From NCBI GenBank assembly GCA_016186695.1, contig JACPLC010000002.1:31335-95334 (forward strand): a DNA stretch of 64,000 bases, written 5' to 3'. Of this stretch, positions 2,942 to 34,776 are shown one piece after another. The notes beneath the pieces are model-generated. The model saw only the letters and a program-made list of their open reading frames with translations, did no database searches and was not told the origin of the DNA. The stretch comes from Candidatus Kaiserbacteria bacterium (lineage in GTDB: Bacteria; Patescibacteriota; Minisyncoccia; Phycocordibacterales; UBA2100). Position numbers and translations under genes: made by a program. Position 1 is the first letter of the stretch. Each line of letters starts with the position of its first letter.

Positions 2942-4011
2942 TAAGTACTGATAGATCGATATTCGCCGAGGAGAGTTCTACGCGGCGCCGACATCGCGCA
3001 TATGCAAAATATTTTGATGAGCTGCACGTATTATGTATTTCGGAAGGGACTCCATTCGCGGCTGTGCGAGATGGGAATCTCACGATCTACCCATCATCTC
3101 CACCAGCTCCTTTTTTTAGTAAGCTTTCACGGCGTATACGAGCCGCATACAGTATCGCCGGCATTATCAGCAGGTATGGCATTGATGTCGTATCGGTCCA
3201 AGATCCTTTTGAGACTGGAGTTGCCGCACTTATTGGCATGATGGGGTTGGGAGCAACATTTCACGTACAGGTGCATACTGATTTTCTCTCGCCCAACTAT
3301 CGTCGACTTTCACTTATAAATCGAATACGGGCACTTATTGCAGGTTTCGTGTTGCGAAGGGCTTCACGCATCCGGGTCGTCTCTGAGCACATCAAGGCAT
3401 CAATTCAGGAGCAATACCATCTCAACGTACCAATTTCAGCTCTGCCAATTTTTGCTGACGTAGAGCGGATACATAGAGCTTCTCCAGACGAAAAACTGCT
3501 CGTGCGATTTGCTGCGTACAAAACCAAACTGCTTGTCGTTTCGCGTCTCGAGCCCGAAAAAAATGTCGGCCTCGCGATACGCGCGTTCGCGCGATCAGCG
3601 CCGAGAGATGTATGTCTCATTATCGTTGGCAGCGGCAGTGAGAGATTATCATTGCAACGTTTTGCAAAACGCCTGAATGTCGCCGAGCGGGTCTTTTTTG
3701 ACGCTGATGCGGAAGCGGCACCGTACTTCAAGTTTGCGGATCTCGTGTTGGTTCCGTCGAAATACGAAGGATATGGGCTCGTTATCATTGAGGCGCTTGC
3801 GGCGGGGAAACCGGTGCTCGCAACTGATGTCGGCATTGCGCGTGAAGCGGGGGCGATCGTGACGACCGAAGAGAAGTTTGCTGATGCACTTGCGGAGTGG
3901 TTCAAGAGCGGCCCGCGGACGGGAGAGTTGAAGAACTGCCCCTACAAAAATTTTGACGAGTATGTGCGCGCATACTGTGATGACATAAAAAGATGCGCGA
4001 TCGCTCAATAA
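2926..4011 (+). CDS. Glycosyltransferase family 4
   Basis: 361 aa; ..LVVSRLEPEKNVGLAIRAF..PSKYEGYGLVIIEALAAGKPVLATDVG. Overlaps the previous GT by 16 bp, consistent with an operon. Confidence 0.75.
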   Translation: MRVLLISTDRSIFAEESSTRRRHRAYAKYFDELHVLCISEGTPFAAVRDGNLTIYPSSPPAPFFSKLSRRIRAAYSIAGIISRYGIDVVSVQDPFETGVAALIGMMGLGATFHVQVHTDFLSPNYRRLSLINRIRALIAGFVLRRASRIRVVSEHIKASIQEQYHLNVPISALPIFADVERIHRASPDEKLLVRFAAYKTKLLVVSRLEPEKNVGLAIRAFARSAPRDVCLIIVGSGSERLSLQRFAKRLNVAERVFFDADAEAAPYFKFADLVLVPSKYEGYGLVIIEALAAGKPVLATDVGIAREAGAIVTTEEKFADALAEWFKSGPRTGELKNCPYKNFDEYVRAYCDDIKRCAIAQ

Positions 4012-4032
4012 CTGCTACAATCCTATCCCTCT

Positions 4033-4923
4033 ATGGCTCAAAAAAGCAAGCAAAACAAGCCTCTTATTGGTTTTGTCGGGCAGGGCTATGTTGGCAAGAA
4101 CTACGCCGATGATTTCGAGAGTCGCGGGTATCCGGTTGTTAGGTATTCGCTCGAAGAGCCATACATCGAGAACAAGGGCCTCATAAAGGATTGCGATGTC
4201 GTTTTTATTGCCGTCCCGACGCCGTCGACGCCCAAAGGCTTCGACGCGAGCATTGTCGATAGCGCGCTTTCTTTGCTCGGAAAAGGGAAGATCGCTGTCA
4301 TCAAATCGACCATCGTGCCGGGGATGACCCGCCTCCTCCAGAAGAAGCATCCGAACATCGTCGTCATGTTCTGCCCCGAGTTCCTTTCGGTCGCGACCGC
4401 AGCGTACGATGTAGCGAACCCCTTTTTAAATGTTGTTGGTATTCCCTCGAACTCGCAAAAGCACAAGAAGGCGGCGCAGCTCGTGCTCGCAATCCTGAAA
4501 AAAGCACCGGAGAATCTCATGTGCACGAGCGAAGAAGCAGAACTCATCAAGTACGCGCACAACATCAGCGGCTACATGCAAATCCTCACTTTCAATCTCG
4601 TGTACGATCTCGCCGAGCATTTCAAGGCTGATTGGGGCCCGATACAGCGTGCCATTGAGAGCGATCCACTCATTTGCAACCGGTACGCAAATCCTGTGCA
4701 TAAGGGCGGGCGTGGCGCGGGCGGTTTCTGCTTCATCAAGGACATGGCGGCATTCGCGAGGCATTATGAAGAGACTGTTCGCGAGCCTGCCGGCTCCGCG
4801 CTTCTCGAAGCGGCGCAGCTGAAGAACGTCAGCTTGCTTGCTGCCTCGCACAAAGACCTTGATCTCTTGGAAGGAGTGTACGGGCAGAAGATGATGCAGC
4901 GGGCAAAGAAAGCCCGCCGATAG
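4033..4923 (+). CDS. UDP-glucose/GDP-mannose dehydrogenase family protein, short form lacking the C-terminal UDP-binding domain
   Basis: N-terminal Rossmann GFVGQGYVGKNYA and VFIAVPTP; central-domain motifs FCPEFLSVATAAYDVANP (cf. NPEFLREG) and catalytic-Cys motif GGFCFIKD (cf. GGSCFPKD). The ORF ends about 60 aa after the Cys, and the 80-bp downstream gap cannot encode the missing domain. Confidence 0.55.
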   Translation: MAQKSKQNKPLIGFVGQGYVGKNYADDFESRGYPVVRYSLEEPYIENKGLIKDCDVVFIAVPTPSTPKGFDASIVDSALSLLGKGKIAVIKSTIVPGMTRLLQKKHPNIVVMFCPEFLSVATAAYDVANPFLNVVGIPSNSQKHKKAAQLVLAILKKAPENLMCTSEEAELIKYAHNISGYMQILTFNLVYDLAEHFKADWGPIQRAIESDPLICNRYANPVHKGGRGAGGFCFIKDMAAFARHYEETVREPAGSALLEAAQLKNVSLLAASHKDLDLLEGVYGQKMMQRAKKARR

Positions 4924-5002
4924 CGGGCATGCGCCCCATTAGAGGCCGCGGTCGCTGATTGCCTTCGTTTTTTGTCCGCGTACGATACCCACATAGAGCT
5001 TT

Positions 5003-6070
5003 ATGGACAACGCAAGAAGTATGGGGCCGCGACCTACCTCTAACGGGGTAAATCTCCTCATCGTGACGCAGACGCTCGACCGCACCGATCCTGTTCTTGG
5101 GTTTTTTCACCGCTGGATTGAGGAACTATCGAAGCACTACGAACGCATTAACGTTATTTGTTTAAAAGAAGGAGCGCACTCGTTGCCGGAGAACGTGGAC
5201 GTGCATTCGCTCGGAAAAGAAGGGGGGGCGTCTCGGCTGAAATACGTTGCTCGTTTATTCCGCTACATTTGGAAATTGCGAAACGAGTACGACGCGGTTT
5301 TTGTGCACATGAATCAGGAGTATGTACTTCTTGCCGGCCTATTTTGGCGCTTAATCGGCAAACGCATATACCTATGGCGCAACCACTACGCCGGCTCGAT
5401 GATGACCAACCTTGCCGTCGCGCTCTCCACCAAAGTCTTCTGCACGTCGCGATTCTCCTATACCGCGAAATTCCGCAAGACCGTTCTGATGCCCGTTGGA
5501 ATCGACACGAACGTATTCAGGCCGCTGGACCTACCGAGGAAAGCGGGCTCGATACTTTCCCTCGGACGCATCGCGCCTTCGAAGCACGTCGATGTCTTGA
5601 TAGAAGCGGTTGATATCCTCAAACAAAAGTCGGTGGACATCTCGGCTCGCATTTTTGGCGATGCACTGCCAAAAGATGCCGACTATCATGCCAGCCTTTT
5701 GAAACGTATCGAGGAGCTGGGGCTCACAAATATACAGTTTCATGCCGGAGTTCCGAACTACGAGACGCCGAAGGTCTATAGCGCGCACGATATTTTTGTA
5801 AATTGCAGCGGGAGCGGCATGTACGACAAAACGATTTTTGAAGCAGCAGCGTGCGGAGCGCTTCCGCTTGCTTCGAGCCGCGATTTTTCCGAACTTGCTC
5901 CGGATTTTTCCTTCGCAGAAGGAAGTTCCGAGGAATTAGCCGCAGGGATCGAGAGGCTGATGTCAAAGTTAGATGGGGAACGGGAATCAGCGAGAGCCTC
6001 AATGCGCGCTCTCGCTGAACGTCATAGTCTGCGGGAGCTCGGAGTTCGACTCGGGAACGAGATTCGGTGA
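5003..6070 (+). CDS. Glycosyltransferase, GT-B fold (GT4-like)
   Basis: 355 aa; ..SLGRIAPSKHVDVLIEAVDIL..FVNCSGSGMYDKTIFEAAACGALPLAS. Confidence 0.55.
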   Translation: MDNARSMGPRPTSNGVNLLIVTQTLDRTDPVLGFFHRWIEELSKHYERINVICLKEGAHSLPENVDVHSLGKEGGASRLKYVARLFRYIWKLRNEYDAVFVHMNQEYVLLAGLFWRLIGKRIYLWRNHYAGSMMTNLAVALSTKVFCTSRFSYTAKFRKTVLMPVGIDTNVFRPLDLPRKAGSILSLGRIAPSKHVDVLIEAVDILKQKSVDISARIFGDALPKDADYHASLLKRIEELGLTNIQFHAGVPNYETPKVYSAHDIFVNCSGSGMYDKTIFEAAACGALPLASSRDFSELAPDFSFAEGSSEELAAGIERLMSKLDGERESARASMRALAERHSLRELGVRLGNEIR

Positions 6071-26116: not shown

Positions 26117-26860
26117 CTATTCTGCGGAGAATGATGCTGCGGCTGCTTCCTCGGCCGGAAGCATCACTGATTTCTGCGGAGTTCCTCGTATTTTGAAAGA
26201 GTCGTATTCCTCGGGCGTAAGCGTGAACTCGTACTCTTTTCCTTGCGCGTCGTAGCACTTGGTCCACGACTGCTCGCCGATCTCCTGCGCGGCTATCATG
26301 CCCGTGGTCGAAGCAACTGCCTCGCCGAGGAAGTATCCCTCCTCCATATGTCCGGAAGTGGTGTCGTACAGAGGGGCGGTATACGACATCAGACATTGCA
26401 GCTTCACTTCGACGAGCTCGTCGGCCGAGACAGATGGGGTTGTAGATGCTTCTGTTTGAACACTCGGTGAGCTTTCTGTTGTCACGTGTACAGATTCTGC
26501 CGGAGGCTCCGCAGTGGAAGTTGCAACAGCAGGAGATGTCGTCTCTGTTGTGCTCGCAGTGTCCGCGGGTGATGTGGTGGCCGTAGCCGATGAAGTTGTC
26601 ACGACAGATTCTTCAGGGGTTGACGTTGCCGCACCAAGTACGGTTGGTTCCGGAGATATTGCGGGATCAGCCGTCGCTTGTTCGGTCGTTGATACCGGCG
26701 CAGAATCTGCGGTATCGGCGGGAGTGGTAGTTCCTAACAGCAACTCGGTGGAACTTGCCACAACCTGCGCCAAAACAGGTCGAACCACAAAAAATCCAAG
26801 CACGACCAATGCAAGAATCGCGAAACCGAGCCCTATAGAAACTACAATGTTGCTTTTCAT
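26117..26860 (-). CDS. Membrane-anchored Thr/Ser/Pro/Ala-rich (mucin-like) protein with a C-terminal globular domain
   Basis: N-terminal signal-anchor MKSNIVVSIGLGFAILALVVLGFFVV. About 130 aa of low-complexity T/S/P/A/E (..TTSSATATTSPADTASTTETTSPAVATSTAEPP..). C-terminal ~90-aa domain with Cys (..LQCLMSYTAPLYD..WTKCYDAQGKEYEF..). Confidence 0.5.
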   Translation of the reverse strand: MKSNIVVSIGLGFAILALVVLGFFVVRPVLAQVVASSTELLLGTTTPADTADSAPVSTTEQATADPAISPEPTVLGAATSTPEESVVTTSSATATTSPADTASTTETTSPAVATSTAEPPAESVHVTTESSPSVQTEASTTPSVSADELVEVKLQCLMSYTAPLYDTTSGHMEEGYFLGEAVASTTGMIAAQEIGEQSWTKCYDAQGKEYEFTLTPEEYDSFKIRGTPQKSVMLPAEEAAAASFSAE

Positions 26861-26874
26861 GTGATTAATATTGC

Positions 26875-27351
26875 CTAATAAAATGCTAATAATGATGACG
26901 ATGTCGTAAGTCGGTTGGCGTAGTCCCAGAGGTACGTCGTCGTTTGTCCATCGGTTGTCTTTTGCGCGAGGTTGCCGTTCGCATCGTACATGTACGTCGT
27001 GGTACTCACTCCGTTTGAGATTTCAGTCACCGCGTGCGGATTCGCATATCCAGTACCTCCATATGTGTACGTGCTTGAGGCTGTTCCACTTCCGCTCCAG
27101 AGCGCCAGCATGCTCCCCAGCGTGTCGTACTCATACTGCTGCTTGTATGGCAGAGAGTCCGCTGCCGTCGTGGAAGCGGAGAGGAGACGGTTCAGGGCAT
27201 CATACGAGAACACCGTCGTCGCGCTTGAGCTTGCCGCGGCGGGATTTGCGAGCTGCGTGATGTTGCCGAAGGATTTGTACAAGCGTATAGCGCGATATGC
27301 TCGCCACATCACAGCAAGAGATTCGGGGATATTTTCAGTTGATGTTTTCAT
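26875..27351 (-). pseudogene. Rhs/YD-repeat core fragment: a displaced partial duplicate of the adjacent rhs gene, lacking the DPxGL motif and a toxin tip
   Basis: About 120 aa (..NITQLANPAAASSSATTVFSYDALNRLL.ASTTAADSLPYKQQYEYDTLGSMLALW..YANPHAVTEISNGVSTTTY.YD.NGNL.QKTTD..TTTYLWDYANRLT) are near-identical to main-gene residues encoded at about 28804-29280. Both ends diverge (N-term MKTSTENIPESLAVMWRAY.., C-term ..TSSSLLAFY*). Confidence 0.55.
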
Positions 27352-27387
27352 TGTTTAAAAGTATCTGACACCATTATCCAAACTCCA

Positions 27388-27603
27388 TTATCTGAATAAC
27401 CAAGTTAATAAGATAAATATGCCAATGATCAAATTCGTCAAAGCTTGGAAGCGTGCAAATCTTATCGTGCCTTCGGTAGTTTCGCTCTGTTTCCATAGGT
27501 TGTGTCTTACCCAGTTGAAGAATTTTTTACTAAAGAGTCCGAGGGCTCCAATAATTGTGAAAAGGAGTCCAGCCAGAAGAATGACGATATCTTGATTCAT
27601 CAT
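27388..27603 (-). CDS. Small two-TM membrane protein, candidate immunity protein for the Rhs C-terminal toxin
   Basis: 71 aa; MMNQDIVILLAGLLFTIIGALGLF..(TM1)..TNLIIGIFILLTWLF (TM2). Immediately downstream of the rhs stop on the same strand, 21-bp gap, AT-richer than the surroundings. Confidence 0.45.
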   Translation of the reverse strand: MMNQDIVILLAGLLFTIIGALGLFSKKFFNWVRHNLWKQSETTEGTIRFARFQALTNLIIGIFILLTWLFR

Positions 27604-27624
27604 TTTTAGTTGCTACGTTAATAA

Positions 27625-30600
27625 TTATGGGCCAGATTTCGACTTTCCGGCTGCTCGTTGAATCAGTGCGTTGAGCTGTGCGCGTATTACATTGATTCTT
27701 GCTTGTATGGCCGCGATTTGTGCCGCAAAAGAGTTACTGGAAACAGAGCCGCCTGAACTGGAACCTCCTTGAGCAGATTGCTGAGATTCAGATGGCCGGG
27801 TCGATTGTTGTTGTGCCGGTCGGTTGTTGCCGCTTCCACCTCCCGAAGAGCTAGGTGGTGGCGAGGATAACGGCGTGCCGGAGATAACTGCCTGTGCAAT
27901 TTGTTGGGGCGTGAGGTTTCCAGAATCAAGGTTGCGACATTCATGCTTTGCACAATATACATCTATTCCTGCAAGCGTAATGCCGGCAACATTTATAAGA
28001 GCGCCATATCCCGTCCACCCATAGAGATATGATGCGGCAGATCCCACAGCAAACAATGATAAATCGACATTTCTCTGTGCTTTATCGGCTTGTATTTCAG
28101 CAGTGCTTTCGTACGAAGAAACAACCCATGCATCATCCACTGATCTCGCTGTCTGCACACCGCTTACGCCTTCGAGAATCGGATAGAAGTAAGTTTCGAT
28201 TCCGGCTCTAGTAATTGTAAGTAGACCACTCGGATCCGAATTCGATATTGGGTTGTCTCCAGCATATGAATAACTATTTAACAGTTGCGGATTTGCGAGT
28301 AGCGTCCTGGCCGGTTTGCCCATGAGTCGCTCGATGTTTGGCGTTCCGATGGCAAGATGTAGAGGGTCTTGACTAAGGAATTGTCCGCGTTCTCCGTCAT
28401 AGTACCTAGCGTTTAGGTATGACAGACCACTTCCTTCGTCGAAGAATTGTCCAATGAATTCTCTGTTGGAGATATCTGTGCCGGAGTCGATTCTTGTACT
28501 GCCATACGGATAGTAGTCGAGCGTCTGCATCACGGCAGTGTTGTTTGCATTGGAGACGATGTTCGTGCTCCCCAGATGATCTGGATGTATATACCGCACT
28601 TCCGCGGTTCCCGTTGCACTGCCGTTCGTGAAGGCCTGATCTATCGTCGAAAGCAACGTATCACTGCTGAATATATACTCGGTCGTGGTCGCGTAGTTAG
28701 TCCCACTTCTCGTGCTTGACGCCACCGAGTACCATTTACTCGCATACGTCGTTGTTGCCGTCGTCGACGCTATCTGATACACCCTCGCCCCGAAGGCGTC
28801 GTAGCCGTAGGTTGTGGTCGAATTGTTGACGCCGAGTGCTGTCAGCCTATTCGCATAGTCCCACAGATACGTTGTCGTCACATTGTCTGTGGTCTTTTGA
28901 GAAAGGTTTCCATTATTGTCATATGAATACGTTGTCGTTGAGACGCCATTTGAAATTTCAGTTACAGCATGGGGATTGGCATAGCTCGTGCCAGAGTAGG
29001 CATACGTGCTGGAGGCCGTCCCGTTCCAGAGAGCCAACATACTCCCGAGCGTGTCGTATTCATACTGCTGCTTGTATGGCAGAGAGTCCGCGGCGGTCGT
29101 CGATGCTTGCAGCAACCTATTCAACGCATCGTACGAGAACACCGTCGTCGCGCTTGAGCTCGCCGCAGCAGGATTCGCGAGCTGTGTGATGTTGCCCGCG
29201 GGATCGTACGTGTATGAGAAATCCTGGACGTTGGAGCTGTTCGCCAATGTTTTTAGGTTCGTCAATCTGTACAGGGCATCGGCGTTGTAGGTGCGCGTGG
29301 TCGAGGCGCCGCTTCCGAAGACTGTCGTGATGGATTGACTCGTCGGCGCATACGTGAGGCTGCTCACGATGTCGCTGAACGATCCGCCTGAAGGTTTGCG
29401 CTGTATTCTGCTCGGCAATCCGGCGTTGTTGTAGCCCACGGTGACGGCTGTGCTGTTCGGGTATGTCCACGAGGTAACATTGCCCTGCCGGTCATACGAG
29501 TATTGCATGTTGTATGCATTGTTTAAGATCGTGGTTGTTGCGGAAAGAATGCGGCCGAGTATGTCGTAGCTATTCGTCGACGTCGCGGACGTCGATGAGG
29601 CGGAGCAAAGGTAGCCGATGCCGTTGGTACAGCTGTCATAGACGAGGGTGACTTCGGTGCCGGAGGCTCCCGTGTAGTTCTCGGTCAGCATGCGGTTGAG
29701 GGCGTCGTATGTGCGGTTCACTGTTTGAGCCTTCGGATCAGTTTGGGACGTGAGATTGCCCTGATGATCGTAGGTGTACGACCAGATGCCGAAGGTCGTG
29801 TCGGTGGCGTTGTGCAGGTCTTGCGCCGAGAGACGCCTGCCGAGGCCATCGTACGTGAAGCCGCGGACATTGCTCCTGCTGTCGGTCGTCGTTGCGAGAT
29901 TATTCTGCACGTCGTACGAATGCGTCGTCGTGGCGAAGACCGGTACCGTTCTCACCTGATTGCCGACACGCGCTTCCACCGCTACCTCGATCCAGTCGCT
30001 GTTCGTGGTATGTGTCCAACCGAGCGATTGAGCGCTGGATGTTGACGTTTTCAGAACGCTCGCGCCATGAGAGAAGTTGTTGGAGCATTGGTTGGTCAGT
30101 TGTTGTATTTGAGGCGAGTTTGCAGTCAGAGTCTGGCTCAAGTTGTACCAGAGATTGTCATCCACGATCGAATTATCACTTTGTGTGGTAATCGAGATTG
30201 AAGGATCGCCCGTTGTGCCGGTATTGAACTTCATTGCCCCGATTGGGTTCACGGTGTCCGTTCCGGTGTACGAGACGGCCGAAACGTACCCACCGCTATT
30301 CGGAGAAAACGTGACAACAACGTTGTTTGAGCCGCTCGTGGGATTAGTTAGGTACCACGTTCCGACTCCTCCTGTTGAAGTGGCGAATGTCATGTCGACG
30401 CCGGCGTACTTCACGGTTGATACAAAGGGAGAATCTATCTGAACAAGTAGCAGCGTCGACGTGGCGCTGACAGTCTTTGAGAGCTCTACAGAGGCCACCG
30501 ATGAGCACATGACAGTATTAGCGGGGCCGTTCGTCCCGGTTTCGATCGATATCGAGGTACCCACCGCTGTCGTCGTCGCGGCGTACAACCCCCGTTCGAC

Positions 30601-33600
30601 GACAGTCGCGAGATTGCCGAATGCGTCATACCAATACACTTTTGTGTTGCCGTTCGGATCGGTCGCCGTCGTTGTCCATTTCGCGTACGAGTTGGTTTTG
30701 GTGCCGACGGCGTTTGCTTCAGACGTGAGACGCTTTAGTGGGTCGTAGAGGTAGTTCGTATAGAGAGCCGTGGTAGCAGTTGGCGTCGTATACGCCGTGC
30801 TAGAGGATGAGTATGGAAGAGTGGACGAAGCGAGAAGTCCCACCTGACTATACTTTCGATCTGTGACGAGGAAGATATTGGAGTCGGGCGATTCTTTGCG
30901 CTCTTGGAACAACCGATTGAATCCATCGAAATACTGGTATGTGTCCACTGTGTTTCCCGGAAAGAGCCAATCGCTTCGCTGAATCGAGCTGGGAGTCGTC
31001 GTGCTGTCGATGTACGTGTAGACAGTGGTCGTCGCGTACGTTGAAGGCGTCGATGTCGAAGACACGTCTACTTCTTTGAGACGCCCGACTCCATCGAATA
31101 CGTTTTTCATCAGTGACTCGTTCGGGTCGTTCTTCCATCGTACTTTTCCGTTTGCATAGTTGTATAGAAGTTGCGTCTTCTGGAGTAGCGCATTCGTGGA
31201 CGTGGCAACGTACAAGTTGTTTGCATCGTAGACATACGACGTTGCGTTGCCATTGCGATCCGTCGAGGTTGCGACAAGGCCGTACGAATTATGCGTCTTG
31301 GTGGAGCTCGCATACATGGTGCCGCTGATCCAGTCTTCCTGCTTCGTGTTGTTGCCGACGTTTACCGACCCGAACGCGAGCGAGTCGTAGTAGAACTTTT
31401 GATCCGTGCTCGTCGCACCGTTGTAGTCGAGGAGCGTCTTTTGGGTAGGTACACTCATGTTCACTGTGCTGCTCGCTGCGTATGATATGTTCGTCGTGCG
31501 TTTGTCCGTTCCACTGTCGGTGAATTCGGCACTGTCCGTATTGCCGCTGACCTCTCCGTACTCGATAGTTTGGATCAGGTCATTCGTAGTCGAGGAGTAA
31601 TGGTAGTCGATCGCTTTGTCGCGGTGGGTGCCGTCCGAGGCATAATCCAGCGTCACCTGCCTACCGAGCCCTATGAACGTGCTATCGCCGTGCTCAACCG
31701 TGTCCCACCGATAGAGCGCGCGCTGTTTGAGATTGTTGGAAGTATCGGAAACGTCTTTGCGCGTAGGTCGGCCGATGCGGGCGAGCGAGTTCTGCCCGTA
31801 GTGTGTCGTGACGATCGAATCGGGATTCGTTACTGTCACCGGTGAAAAGCCGGCGAACCGCCTGTCGCGCACCGTCGTGTTGTACCAGTGCCCGTTCGAG
31901 TATGAATACGTCGTTGTCGCATAGTTGCCGAGACCATCATGGGTCACTGTCGTACTTGCGGCAAGCACTCTGATCGCCGACCCGGGATTCCCGGCCATCT
32001 TGTATGCGATCGCGATGCCGCCGCCTTTGGGATTCGTAACGTTCGTAATCACATCCTGTTGCATTTGCCCGTTGCCATAGAAGTTCACGAACTCGTTGTA
32101 TGCGATCGTGCTCGTTCCCGCGTTGCAGGTTGCTATGTACGCGGGCAATGTGTACCTCGTGCTTGTCGCCCAACCGCTGCCGGTATTGAGGTATACGGCC
32201 TTTACGTCCGCGACTTCGGTGCCGACGCATCCTCCGCCTGATGCGCCGAGGTACGAGCGGACGAGATCCGTGAGACCGTCACCATTCATATCCATGAAGC
32301 GGATACCACGGTCGTAGTAATTGCCGTTCGATAGGTACGTTGTTGATGTGGCGAATGTCCAGTGCGAATCGGGGACGCTGTTCCACCCGCTGCCATTGTT
32401 CAGTAACACATACGTACTGCTTGCGGCGGAATAGACCCAGTCGTCGAGGTTGTCGCCGTTGATATCAACGAGTTGCGACGCGGTTTCCGTGGGCGCAGTC
32501 GAGGGGAACGATTTCGCTGCGGGAAATACCGTTACCGTGCGGTCCCACGCGGATCCGTTGCCGAGGTACGTGGACGTGGCGAGTTCATTGGTGAGCGCCG
32601 TGAGGTAGTCGGGCAAGCCATCGCCGTTCACGTCTCCGAAGAGGCCGCCAGTGAGGTAGAGGCCGCCACTCGTCTTTTTCGCGAAGGTGGGAATGTTTCC
32701 CGTGTAGCTCGTTGACGTTGCCGACCAGCCATACGTGTCAGTGGTAGTCGAATATTGGTTGTTGTAGATGGCGTAATCAGAGGTGCCGGCAGAATCGTCG
32801 ATCCATCCACGCACCGCGTCTGCTTTTCCGTCGCCGTTGATGTCGAGATAGCGCACGCCACGCTCCAGAGGCACCTGATTCGGATATCCCGTACTTGCCC
32901 AGTACTCGGGAGGCGCGTGGCTCGCGTCCGGCACGGCAATAGCGCTTGCCTCGTTGTCGTGCCACATGAAGCCATTGCCCGTCCCGGGCATGAAGAGATT
33001 CACGTCGTTGATCCCGTTGCCGTCGGTGTCTGCGACTGCGTAGTCTGCTCCGTCCACGTTCTGTATCGCCGGTCCGAAGTATTGGGTGGATGAGCTCGCA
33101 TAACTGAATGTCATCGCAGGGAGCGTAACGAGTGTATTGTTGTCGTCGTAGCCCTGCTGCACGATGCTTGTGAGGAGAGAACGAAGGCTGTTGTTTCCAG
33201 TCCCATACCCCAGGAGATACTTTCTGACTGTCGATCCGTTCACTGAAGCATCGATTTCATAAATTCTTTTAGTTGTGGTCGCGGAAAATCCGGATGCGTA
33301 GCTGATGCGAGCGTCGGGCCGCGTCGTCGTTGCAAACGTGATCGTGAACGGCCCGTCGGTCGAGCCCTTACCTGTGTATGTGATCGTATCGGGGTATAGA
33401 GTATTATTATCTCTTAAATATGTGTACTCGATGTAGTTGTCGTTTGTGTCGCGGATCTCTTGGAGCATCCAGCGGTAGGTGTTCGTCGACGTGCCGGTGC
33501 CCGTGTCGTACATCCTGCCGGAATCATCGGAGCCGAACGTGTATCGCGTTCCTCTTTTGTCGTACATCGTCCACGAGGTGGTGGCGAAGGTGTACACGTT

Positions 33601-34707
33601 GAACGACCCGTCATCGACCTTTGCGAGGTACGTACCGGCACTTCCCGAGCTCGCGCTTGGCGCCTTCACCTCTACCGCTATCTCGATCCAAGCGCCGTCA
33701 CCAGCCGAATGTGTCCATCCGAGCGATTGAAGGCCGGAGGATGTCGTCTTCAAGACGCTCGCGCCATGGGAGAAGTTGCCCGAGCAGCTGTCGGTGAGCT
33801 GCTGTATCTGGGGCGAGTTCGCAGTCAATGTTTGAGTCCCATCGTAAAAGACTTGGTCGTCCACTGCCGAGTAGTTGCTCTCCGTCGTGATCAGTACCGA
33901 CGTATTGCCGGTGGAGCCTGTGTTGTACGCCATCGCGCCGATCGGATCCGACGTGTCGGTTCCAGTGTACGAGACGGCAGAAACGTACCCGCCGCTGCTT
34001 TGCGAAAGGTTGACAACCAGATCATTCGTTCCACTCGTCGGGTTTGCGAGATACCATGTCTCAACTCCGCCAGTTGAAGTGGCACGCGTCGTGTTTACAC
34101 CGGCGTACGTCACGCTGGAAATGAAAGGGGTGTCGATGTGCGCAATTAGAAGAGTCGAGGTTGAACTTACAGACTTTGATAGTGAAAATGGGTCCGATGA
34201 CGGCGTGCATCGCATAACTTTCGTCGGTCCATTTGAGTTGGTTTCGATCGAGATGGTTGCCGTTGTCGTTGCTCCGCTTGACGTTGAGCTTGCAACGAGC
34301 TCGCCATCAATCGACGAGGTGAAGTATGGAATCGTGCCGTATAGTTCCTGCGAACCAATCTTGTTGAGGCGTTCGATGTATGGAATGGAAAGCTCCCACC
34401 CGTAGCCGACGATTCCATCTCTCGTGCGCTGGCTGTTGTAATCGAGTGCGATATCCGGTTGGAGGCCGTTACGGCCGGGAAGAATGTCGAGAGGGACGCG
34501 CTGCGTAAATGCTCCGGTGGACCCGTCTATCTTCGGATCCTCCGTTACTGCTGAAAATACCGACGCATTCGGGACTGTTGGCGATCCGTCGCCGAATGCC
34601 GCGAATGCGAGACCAGCCGGTGATATCGAAAAAAGGGAAACAACAAAAACCGCCAGTACGCGGGTGATGCGCCGCAATTCCGCGCCAACGAGATTTCGGC
34701 TTTTCAT
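27625..34707 (-). CDS. Giant Rhs-family polymorphic toxin with TcB-TcC-fusion-like architecture (SpvB-like N-domain, FG-GAP/VCBS repeats, YD/RHS repeats, RHS core, variable C-terminal toxin)
   Basis: About 2360 aa from MKSRNLVG.. (ATG 34707, signal peptide follows; the maximal ORF runs to 34776). SpvB-like ..VPLDILPGRNGLQPDIALDYNSQRTRDGIVGYGWELSIPYIER. FG-GAP/VCBS motifs (DTDGNGINDV, LDINGDGKADAV, GDVNGDGLPDYL, VDINGDNLDDWV, MDMNGDGLTDLV). Dozens of YD repeats (YxYDxxGNL..). Core end ..YYDGERGQFLSQDPLHL..(41 aa)..DPSGL, followed by a 198-aa tail. Confidence 0.85.
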   Translation of the reverse strand: MKSRNLVGAELRRITRVLAVFVVSLFSISPAGLAFAAFGDGSPTVPNASVFSAVTEDPKIDGSTGAFTQRVPLDILPGRNGLQPDIALDYNSQRTRDGIVGYGWELSIPYIERLNKIGSQELYGTIPYFTSSIDGELVASSTSSGATTTATISIETNSNGPTKVMRCTPSSDPFSLSKSVSSTSTLLIAHIDTPFISSVTYAGVNTTRATSTGGVETWYLANPTSGTNDLVVNLSQSSGGYVSAVSYTGTDTSDPIGAMAYNTGSTGNTSVLITTESNYSAVDDQVFYDGTQTLTANSPQIQQLTDSCSGNFSHGASVLKTTSSGLQSLGWTHSAGDGAWIEIAVEVKAPSASSGSAGTYLAKVDDGSFNVYTFATTSWTMYDKRGTRYTFGSDDSGRMYDTGTGTSTNTYRWMLQEIRDTNDNYIEYTYLRDNNTLYPDTITYTGKGSTDGPFTITFATTTRPDARISYASGFSATTTKRIYEIDASVNGSTVRKYLLGYGTGNNSLRSLLTSIVQQGYDDNNTLVTLPAMTFSYASSSTQYFGPAIQNVDGADYAVADTDGNGINDVNLFMPGTGNGFMWHDNEASAIAVPDASHAPPEYWASTGYPNQVPLERGVRYLDINGDGKADAVRGWIDDSAGTSDYAIYNNQYSTTTDTYGWSATSTSYTGNIPTFAKKTSGGLYLTGGLFGDVNGDGLPDYLTALTNELATSTYLGNGSAWDRTVTVFPAAKSFPSTAPTETASQLVDINGDNLDDWVYSAASSTYVLLNNGSGWNSVPDSHWTFATSTTYLSNGNYYDRGIRFMDMNGDGLTDLVRSYLGASGGGCVGTEVADVKAVYLNTGSGWATSTRYTLPAYIATCNAGTSTIAYNEFVNFYGNGQMQQDVITNVTNPKGGGIAIAYKMAGNPGSAIRVLAASTTVTHDGLGNYATTTYSYSNGHWYNTTVRDRRFAGFSPVTVTNPDSIVTTHYGQNSLARIGRPTRKDVSDTSNNLKQRALYRWDTVEHGDSTFIGLGRQVTLDYASDGTHRDKAIDYHYSSTTNDLIQTIEYGEVSGNTDSAEFTDSGTDKRTTNISYAASSTVNMSVPTQKTLLDYNGATSTDQKFYYDSLAFGSVNVGNNTKQEDWISGTMYASSTKTHNSYGLVATSTDRNGNATSYVYDANNLYVATSTNALLQKTQLLYNYANGKVRWKNDPNESLMKNVFDGVGRLKEVDVSSTSTPSTYATTTVYTYIDSTTTPSSIQRSDWLFPGNTVDTYQYFDGFNRLFQERKESPDSNIFLVTDRKYSQVGLLASSTLPYSSSSTAYTTPTATTALYTNYLYDPLKRLTSEANAVGTKTNSYAKWTTTATDPNGNTKVYWYDAFGNLATVVERGLYAATTTAVGTSISIETGTNGPANTVMCSSVASVELSKTVSATSTLLLVQIDSPFVSTVKYAGVDMTFATSTGGVGTWYLTNPTSGSNNVVVTFSPNSGGYVSAVSYTGTDTVNPIGAMKFNTGTTGDPSISITTQSDNSIVDDNLWYNLSQTLTANSPQIQQLTNQCSNNFSHGASVLKTSTSSAQSLGWTHTTNSDWIEVAVEARVGNQVRTVPVFATTTHSYDVQNNLATTTDSRSNVRGFTYDGLGRRLSAQDLHNATDTTFGIWSYTYDHQGNLTSQTDPKAQTVNRTYDALNRMLTENYTGASGTEVTLVYDSCTNGIGYLCSASSTSATSTNSYDILGRILSATTTILNNAYNMQYSYDRQGNVTSWTYPNSTAVTVGYNNAGLPSRIQRKPSGGSFSDIVSSLTYAPTSQSITTVFGSGASTTRTYNADALYRLTNLKTLANSSNVQDFSYTYDPAGNITQLANPAAASSSATTVFSYDALNRLLQASTTAADSLPYKQQYEYDTLGSMLALWNGTASSTYAYSGTSYANPHAVTEISNGVSTTTYSYDNNGNLSQKTTDNVTTTYLWDYANRLTALGVNNSTTTYGYDAFGARVYQIASTTATTTYASKWYSVASSTRSGTNYATTTEYIFSSDTLLSTIDQAFTNGSATGTAEVRYIHPDHLGSTNIVSNANNTAVMQTLDYYPYGSTRIDSGTDISNREFIGQFFDEGSGLSYLNARYYDGERGQFLSQDPLHLAIGTPNIERLMGKPARTLLANPQLLNSYSYAGDNPISNSDPSGLLTITRAGIETYFYPILEGVSGVQTARSVDDAWVVSSYESTAEIQADKAQRNVDLSLFAVGSAASYLYGWTGYGALINVAGITLAGIDVYCAKHECRNLDSGNLTPQQIAQAVISGTPLSSPPPSSSGGGSGNNRPAQQQSTRPSESQQSAQGGSSSGGSVSSNSFAAQIAAIQARINVIRAQLNALIQRAAGKSKSGP
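28804..29280 (-). repeat. Segment of the main rhs gene that is duplicated as the displaced fragment at 26875-27351
   Basis: Shared protein stretch on the sense strand. Shared antisense ORF peptides (..LPSVSYSYCCLYGRESAAVV.., ..RIHTAACMAESP..) appear at both loci with a 1929-bp offset. Confidence 0.55.
29953..30555 (-). repeat. Intragenic duplicated ~200-aa domain, copy 2 (inserted within the RHS-repeat region)
   Basis: ..ISIETGTNGPANTVMCSSVASVELSKTVSATSTLLLVQIDSPFVSTVKYAGV..SGGYVSAVSYTGTDTVNPIGAM..TLTANSPQIQQLTNQCSNNFSHGASVLKT..SLGWTH..WIEVAVEA. About 65% identical to copy 1, offset 3708 bp. Confidence 0.6.
33661..34263 (-). repeat. Intragenic duplicated ~200-aa domain, copy 1 (rhs N-terminal region)
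   Basis: ..ISIETNSNGPTKVMRCTPSSDPFSLSKSVSSTSTLLIAHIDTPFISSVTYAGV..SGGYVSAVSYTGTDTSDPIGAM..TLTANSPQIQQLTDSCSGNFSHGASVLKT..SLGWTH..WIEIAVEV. Mirrored by homologous antisense ORFs at 33875-34405 and 30143-30442. Confidence 0.6.
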
Positions 34708-34776
34708 GAAAGATCTTTCTACGCGCGCGAGTATATAACGACTTCTCGAGCCGTGATTTGAGAAAATCGAGCCCAT

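Follow-up and report, generated by a model that had tools for sequence, protein, structure and literature searches.

The rhs gene in a 64,000-nt stretch of the Candidatus Kaiserbacteria contig JACPLC010000002.1 (assembly GCA_016186695.1, positions 31,335–95,334; this whole stretch is referred to below as the window) very probably ends in a toxin-immunity cassette. The cassette is composed of the 198-amino acid (aa) C-terminal tail of the Rhs protein and a candidate immunity gene, the product of which has two predicted transmembrane (TM) helices. Its acquisition by recombination, with the junction inside the end of the conserved Rhs-associated core, is well supported by base composition and by comparison of related sequences. 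The explanation that we favour as a whole, with a probability of about 0.6, is that this cassette is carried by a Sec-exported Rhs cocoon and encodes a toxin acting on membranes.

Origin of the cassette

The first-pass annotation of this DNA, made by a model from the letters alone, described the end of rhs and the small gene as clearly AT-richer than surroundings of about 60% GC. The AT-rich character and its approximate boundary hold, but the surroundings have a GC content of only 54–55% (0.539 for the 64-kb window and 0.55 for the rest of rhs, versus 0.49 for the tail and 0.38 for the small open reading frame, ORF). The lowest-GC segments of 216, 600 and 1113 nt in the whole 64 kb are all located at about 27190–27410. 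The GC content of third codon positions (GC3) declines along the gene (Table 1), starting within the conserved core, at about aa 2070–2130 (roughly 28400–28560), while fifteen other genes have a GC3 of 0.604 ± 0.058, with a minimum of 0.486.

Downstream of the small gene there is a truncated orphan Rhs module, positions 26915–27267 of which share 75% nt identity (blastn) with a stretch of the main rhs core. Its core breaks off past ANRLTT, and its leader (MK..NIxxSLxxMWRAYRAIR) is not found in the main gene and is common to the complete orphan Rhs cassettes of the metagenomic locus L015 (loci are given L numbers and proteins P numbers). A downstream relic of this kind is what recombination of a new tail/immunity unit into the end of the core would be expected to leave, so the orphan module fits a swap. 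We also observed that the leader (MK..NI.xSLxxMWxAYRAxR) stands in for the main-gene sequence just before GNITQ and is present in L015 at 1428–2372 and 3569–5221, which suggests a fixed junction for the orphan cassettes of this lineage.

The nearest core in GTDB representative genomes belongs to another Candidatus Kaiserbacteria sequence (49% identity), the tail and downstream gene of which differ from those in the window; the next-best core matches are mostly from other Patescibacteria, with a few from Gammaproteobacteria and others. Neither the tail nor the small protein of the window was found in any of 77 related Rhs loci. C-terminal tails thus vary among related Rhs cores, as is characteristic of polymorphic toxins. 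Taken with the GC3 gradient and the orphan module, these different tails on related cores bear out the proposal of the first-pass annotation, namely a swapped Rhs-CT (C-terminal toxin)/immunity cassette with recombination inside the core end. Three independent Logan assemblies (L093–L095) are 100% identical across 27133–29089, so the arrangement is not an assembly artefact.

Table 1. Features of the rhs locus and its C-terminal cassette (positions within the window).
Feature	Position	Strand	GC3	Description
rhs gene	27625..34776	(-)	0.676 (aa 1-2000)	2383 aa; from the ORF list and translation
Stretch of the main rhs core repeated in the orphan remnant	28850..29196	(-)		blastn
Rhs-associated core domain, end NSDPSGL	28222..28515	(-)	0.54 (aa 2012-2185)	aa 2088-2185; TIGR03696
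Tail	27628..28221	(-)	0.379	198 aa after DPSGL
Tail core	27880..28221	(-)		tail residues 1-114; acidic, pI 4.5; predicted all-helical
Gly/Ala/Ser-rich, moderately hydrophobic stretch LSLFAVGSAASYLYGWTGYGALINVAGITLAGIDVYCA	27949..28062	(-)		tail residues 54-91
Motif D-x-Y-C-x-x-H-x-C-(R/K)-(N/D)-(F/L)	27928..27963	(-)		tail residues 87-98
Ser/Gly/Pro/Gln low-complexity linker	27733..27879	(-)		tail residues 115-163; predicted disordered, pLDDT <50
Predicted terminal heptad helix SFAAQIAAIQARINVIRAQLNALIQRAAG	27646..27732	(-)		tail residues 164-192; basic
Candidate immunity gene	27388..27603	(-)	0.444	71 aa; two TM helices and a basic loop predicted to be cytoplasmic
Truncated orphan Rhs module	26875..27351	(-)		158 aa; leader and about 120 aa of core; Pfam RHS_repeat
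pI, isoelectric point; pLDDT, predicted local distance difference test.

Linkage of the tail and the small gene

An exhaustive HMMER search of 1.84 billion representative proteins with the tail sequence gave nine matches, of which eight (E 6.5e-23 to 2e-6) represent true relatives. Six of these eight relatives are placed directly after an Rhs core-end (DPxG) motif, while P0003 and P0009 are short predicted proteins without core sequence. The ninth match was rejected as a repeat-protein artefact. A profile search via a word index added four further relatives (P0010–P0013), and P0010–P0012 were included in the tail alignment, which comprises 12 sequences. No relatives were recovered by a word-index protein search with the tail sequence alone or by pattern scans of GTDB representative genomes and viral contigs. 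The putative toxin family represented by the tail is a rare one, with about 12 relatives, and is named in no curated library.

A homologue of the small gene was identified downstream of this tail family in 9/9 loci examined, a count that leaves out the contexts of P0003, P0005, P0009, P0011 and P0012. This is the opposite of what the first-pass annotation had named as grounds for abandoning its proposal, i.e. absence of the small ORF from homologous loci. In the window the homologue lies 21 nt downstream of the tail, in L001/L013 it occurs as two tandem copies, and it is also found downstream of the tail in L006, L008–L011 and L098. In the remaining loci the homologue is cut by the contig end (L002–L005/L014; full-length relatives are P0024 and P0025), displaced by insertion sequence (IS) elements (L007), truncated by a group II intron (L012), or present next to a tail that has been mostly destroyed by an IS200-like transposase (L015). 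The small proteins of the window and L001 match pairwise with an E-value of 2e-19. Over seven pairs, identities of the tail cores co-vary with those of the small proteins (Mantel r 0.89, reached by 7/5040 permutations), which fits inheritance and divergence as a unit.

Arrays of orphan cassettes, each built of a core fragment, a tail and a small gene, were found in L006 and L015. Mobile elements are located in or beside several cassettes (L015 2412–3080, L016 5974–6645, L007 1413–3545 and L012 2911–3576) and include transposases of the IS200/RayT-like, DDE and rve kinds as well as the reverse transcriptase of a group II intron; two different contigs of Patescibacteria-like character share one transposase type next to their Rhs loci. 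P0007-type orphan copies of the tail (L008–L011) are surrounded by genes typical of Gram-negative bacteria, encoding an outer-membrane efflux protein, an AraC regulator and a major facilitator superfamily (MFS) transporter, so the cassette appears not to be confined to Patescibacteria.

Two-TM proteins of the small-gene family also follow other hydrophobic Rhs tails without significant similarity to that of the window (L006 2586–3945, L015 503–1512 and L096 4330–6258). Alignment (hhalign) of two of these other tails, from L006 and L015, with the profile of the tail family gave no significant score. The tail in L096 is a different one, and behind it come a 98-aa membrane protein and a two-TM homologue. 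Tail modules and immunity genes both seem to be shuffled.

Structure of the tail

Both peptides quoted by the first-pass annotation, and the Ser/Gly/Gln-rich linker that it placed after DPSGL, are present in the 198-aa tail, which can be divided into a core, a linker and a terminal helix (Table 1). AlphaFold2 predicted helices at residues 5–32, 40–66, 70–92 and 105–114 of the core, at low confidence (pLDDT 53–60: 53 for the whole tail and 60 for the core). Within the 12-sequence alignment, D53, D87, C90 and C95 are invariant and H93 is present in 11/12 sequences. The linker (S16, G9, P6 and Q6 among 49 residues) has a Ser/Gly/Asn/Gln/Pro-rich counterpart in every full-length relative; these linkers cannot be aligned, and each is followed by a terminal helix.

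The terminal segment had been described as an amphipathic helix. Its hydrophobic moment is low (0.03–0.27), which disagrees with that description, and its F/I/I/I/I/L/L residues are spaced 4-3-4-3, so it is read as a predicted heptad coiled coil with Ile at both core positions. In coiled coils, such an arrangement favours trimers. Two types of terminal helix occur in the family: type I (QIASIQAQINxIxAQ), to which the window belongs, and type II (LYQSLVxxLxAYVSxL). Type II also closes the different tail of L096, which indicates that the tail itself is modular.

The first-pass annotation could name no family for the toxin domain, and we likewise obtained no Pfam, NCBIfam or PDB family match, be it for the tail or for the small protein. 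Searches of Pfam and NCBIfam with the window tail, all 12 relatives and the small proteins yielded sub-threshold noise only. In a profile search of the PDB with the tail alignment (E<=10) only coiled coils were found, the best being the designed Alphabody 5mj3 (E 8.8e-5), which matched at the terminal helix. Neither by sequence nor by fold, for which the tail models are too weak a basis, could the tail be linked to a known pore former.

The candidate immunity protein

The small ORF begins 21 nt past the rhs stop codon and encodes two strongly hydrophobic segments (19-residue Kyte-Doolittle maxima of 2.75 and 1.97), in agreement with the adjacent 71-aa two-TM gene of the first-pass annotation. 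In public gene calls the start is placed at the second ATG (27600), which gives a 70-aa product (P0017); for this reason, an exact look-up of the 71-aa sequence gave no match. All seven members of the family that were analysed have two TM helices separated by a loop of 26–37 residues, with termini of 1–16 residues (1–8 in 5/7). The loop contains six K+R and two D+E residues in the window protein (6–9 and 2–4, respectively, over the seven members). According to the positive-inside rule, such a net-positive loop would be cytoplasmic, leaving almost nothing of the protein exposed outside; protection would then take place in the bilayer itself or on its inner side, or would consist in keeping the toxin out.

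None of the small proteins reached a Pfam gathering score. The best match was to DUF6199 (E 0.023, 14.9 bits versus the required 27.7), with weak full-length alignments for two members, and Imm17 was not matched. A promoter and terminator scan around the small gene was uninformative.

Proposed mode of action and alternatives

In the mechanism that we propose, the last roughly 300–900 nt of rhs and the small gene would have been gained together by recombination in the conserved core end, an older orphan module being left behind downstream. The predicted aspartyl-protease plug of the core would cut after DPSGL and thereby free a 198-aa helical toxin held within the shell. Once released at a target cell, the toxin would act on the cytoplasmic membrane and disrupt its barrier or potential, and its basic C-terminal heptad helix, tethered by the flexible linker, would probably drive oligomerisation or the first membrane contact. 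The two-TM protein would shield the producer through an interaction with the toxin in the membrane or on its inner side.

Our best guess is an attack on the membrane, because the putative immunity protein is almost wholly membrane-embedded and because the Tse5/Tsi5 pair, discussed below, provides a precedent. The predicted all-helical nature of the tail, which matches no enzyme family, may be counted on the same side. We consider the odds roughly even that the membrane is the site of toxin action, and doubtful that the tail would form an oligomeric pore.

Several observations weigh against a membrane-acting toxin. The best 19-residue Kyte-Doolittle mean of the hydrophobic stretch LSLFAVGSAASYLYGWTGYGALINVAGITLAGIDVYCA is 1.53, compared with the usual 1.6, so that it is a borderline membrane span at most; conserved Asp residues are located within it, and its counterpart in the P0004/P0008/P0010 subfamily is polar or charged (GVAREAKDVEN). 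The first-pass annotation had seen a glycine-zipper core here. This is contradicted by the absence of the pattern (G/A/S)xxxGxxx(G/A/S) from the stretch in the window, the pattern being present there in only 1/12 relatives; zipper-pattern matches of the window tail are confined to the low-complexity linker. The conserved D, D, C, H, C pattern is suggestive of a catalytic or metal/disulfide site rather than of a plain pore former, and fold searches with the low-confidence tail models returned only generic helical bundles. The co-variation of tails and small proteins, for its part, could stem from co-inheritance alone, from which co-evolution is not separable.

In a more detailed version of the membrane hypothesis, which we put forward as speculative and rather unlikely, the tail would found a new class of alpha-helical membrane toxins that are delivered by Rhs proteins. 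This toxin would have an acidic three-helix core with the D/D/C-H-C site, a disordered linker, and an oligomerising, probably trimeric, Ile/Gln helix, and would conduct ions. Its carriers would be Sec-exported cocoons of candidate phyla radiation (CPR) bacteria without a type VI secretion system (T6SS), its targets the exposed membranes of neighbours or hosts, and its antagonist a two-TM immunity protein in the bilayer, with core, linker and tail being shuffled.

The same cassette could instead encode a small enzyme or metal-dependent toxin with its site at D53/D87/C90/H93/C95. Its target would be a membrane-bound substrate (e.g. a lipid-linked cell-wall precursor) or a cytoplasmic one, and the two-TM protein would block entry or a receptor instead of a pore. 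The five invariant or nearly invariant polar residues, four of them within nine positions (D-x-Y-C-x-x-H-x-C), speak for this alternative, as does the lack of conservation of the hydrophobic stretch as a membrane span; moreover, two-TM immunity proteins might prevent toxin uptake, as was considered by Zhang et al. 2012 (PMC3482391). On the other hand, no enzyme family was matched in Pfam, NCBIfam or the PDB, the core is only about 110 aa long and predicted to be all-helical, and the two Cys residues might do no more than make up a disulfide of an exported protein. We regard an enzymatic tail, the main rival reading, as unlikely, though by no means negligible.

It is improbable that the tail is not a toxin at all but serves a surface Rhs protein as an appendage for structure, anchoring or adhesion, with a coiled coil for oligomerisation or attachment and an unrelated small ORF. 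The terminal helix does resemble generic coiled coils, and some relatives occur as orphans in loci that are degraded and riddled with IS elements. However, the tail is placed exactly past the predicted autoproteolytic core end and is polymorphic among related Rhs proteins, it moves together with the small gene as an orphan cassette in arrays, and the two show strict synteny and co-varying divergence. Least likely, and scarcely credible, is that no swap occurred and that the compositional shift is a by-product of amino acid or low-complexity content: the Ser/Gly/Gln linker and the hydrophobic small protein do skew base composition, but the drop is in third codon positions (0.38–0.44 versus a background of 0.60 ± 0.06 and 0.68 in the rest of rhs), it begins inside the conserved core and a displaced orphan core fragment lies downstream. 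A mere amino acid effect was rejected on the basis of GC3.

Architecture of the Rhs protein and genomic context

From its N- to its C-terminus, the rhs product comprises a signal-peptide-like segment (MKSRNLVGAELRRITRVLAVFVVSLFSISPAGLAFA), an SpvB-like region, FG-GAP-like repeats, YD/RHS repeats, the Rhs-associated core and the tail. Pfam matches above the cut-off were obtained for RHS_repeat (PF05593, E 2e-22) and SpvB (E 3.7e-13), while FG-GAP_3 is borderline, with 26.0 bits just under the cut-off of 26.9. Two NCBIfam models were matched: TIGR01643 and, over its full length (1–76/76, E 2.9e-15, aa 2088–2185), TIGR03696 (Rhs_assc_core), the match of which stops exactly at DPSGL. PDB matches of the product are Rhs shells, including that of Tse5. 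The protein thus has both the YD/RHS repeats and the core ending in a PxxxxDPxGL-type motif by which an Rhs/YD polymorphic toxin is recognized. By analogy, the core domain ending in NSDPSGL is predicted to be an aspartyl autoprotease plug cutting after L2185; in Tse5, cleavage was demonstrated after the equivalent Leu (PMC10684867).

A domain of about 200 aa occurs twice in the Rhs protein (33709–34008 and 30010–30309, residues ~175–372 and ~1405–1600), the two copies sharing 71% nt identity over 300 nt. One copy lies in the SpvB-like N-terminal part and the other within the YD-repeat shell. No Pfam family was matched by either, and they may represent surface or receptor-binding insertions.

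Most genes scanned in the window encode glycosyltransferases, sugar-nucleotide enzymes, methyltransferases and an MsbA-like ATP-binding cassette (ABC) exporter, and genes for sugar/polysaccharide functions neighbour rhs. No genes of a T6SS or type VII secretion system (T7SS) and no TcA genes were identified among the neighbours scanned in the window, nor were any tRNA genes or Rfam families at gathering score found within positions 1–64000. We infer that the Rhs protein is exported via Sec as a cocoon similar to that of the Tc toxin BC component. The orphan remnant is followed by a gene (26117–26860, (-)) whose 247-aa product has no family match, starts with a signal/TM segment and contains a long region rich in Ser/Thr/Pro/Ala; in L013 a 213-aa protein of the same general type is encoded after the immunity genes.

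Comparison with known toxin-immunity systems

The cassette resembles the Tse5 (RhsP1)/Tsi5 pair of Pseudomonas aeruginosa in having an Rhs shell with a C-terminal fragment and a two-TM immunity protein. In Tse5, the one characterised Rhs-encapsulated pore former, two catalytic Asp residues release the CT by a cut behind the core Leu; the CT is helical without an enzymatic signature, opens ion-selective channels that prefer cations, and causes depolarisation of cells. It is countered by Tsi5, for which two TM segments are predicted and which is found in the cytoplasmic-membrane fraction (PMC9637101, PMC10684867). Only the shell of the window protein matches Tse5, however, and no Tse5 hit was obtained for the tail profile in the PDB, where only the 1121-aa shell chain of Tse5 was seen, so that Tse5-CT may be lacking there. 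Furthermore, Tse5 is delivered by a T6SS via VgrG and has a PAAR-like N-terminus, whereas the window Rhs starts with a putative signal peptide and an SpvB-like region and has no T6SS genes in its vicinity, and Tse5-CT, as far as the cited text describes it, lacks the low-complexity linker and coiled-coil tail present in the window. The resemblance to Tse5-CT is a functional analogy and not family membership.

As far as their published description goes, glycine-zipper effectors such as EsxX (C-terminus) are similar in combining a small, hydrophobic, Gly-rich C-terminal toxin with a membrane-associated immunity protein. Tse4 and Ssp6 are further membrane-depolarising effectors with a glycine zipper. 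Unlike these, the window tail does not contain the defining repeated GxxxG-type zipper, which is not conserved in its family either, and the mode of delivery differs.

Sec-exported Rhs/YD toxins of the WapA type, which belong to bacteria lacking an outer membrane, share with the window protein a signal peptide, a YD shell, a variable tail and an adjacent immunity gene. Known WapA tails are nucleases. With the borderline FG-GAP match counted in, the order of SpvB, FG-GAP and RHS regions in the rhs product resembles that of a fused TcB-TcC, but unlike the BC cocoons of Tc toxins it has no TcA partner gene among the scanned window neighbours, and it differs from both WapA and Tc BC systems in carrying two inserted copies of the ~200-aa domain. 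The small protein, for its part, is similar to Imm17, Imm-CdiI and DUF6199 in its length (about 70–85 aa), its two TM helices and the aromatic and Arg residues conserved in the loop (PMC3482391). Literature searches on DUF6199 and on Rhs toxins in CPR bacteria yielded nothing relevant.

Rhs toxin/immunity cassettes are well known; what is new here is a putative toxin family together with its cognate two-TM immunity family, both unnamed in curated libraries. The cassette appears to be carried by a Sec-exported Rhs cocoon of an ultra-small CPR-type bacterium, in a window whose scanned genes include none of a T6SS or T7SS and no TcA. The conserved coiled-coil tail on its flexible linker offers a concrete, testable idea of how a toxin may assemble on leaving the cocoon. 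If the membrane mechanism is true, this would be a second Rhs-encapsulated pore former after Tse5 and unrelated to it, and the pair would be small and tractable enough to study how an immunity protein embedded in the membrane blocks a toxin that acts there.

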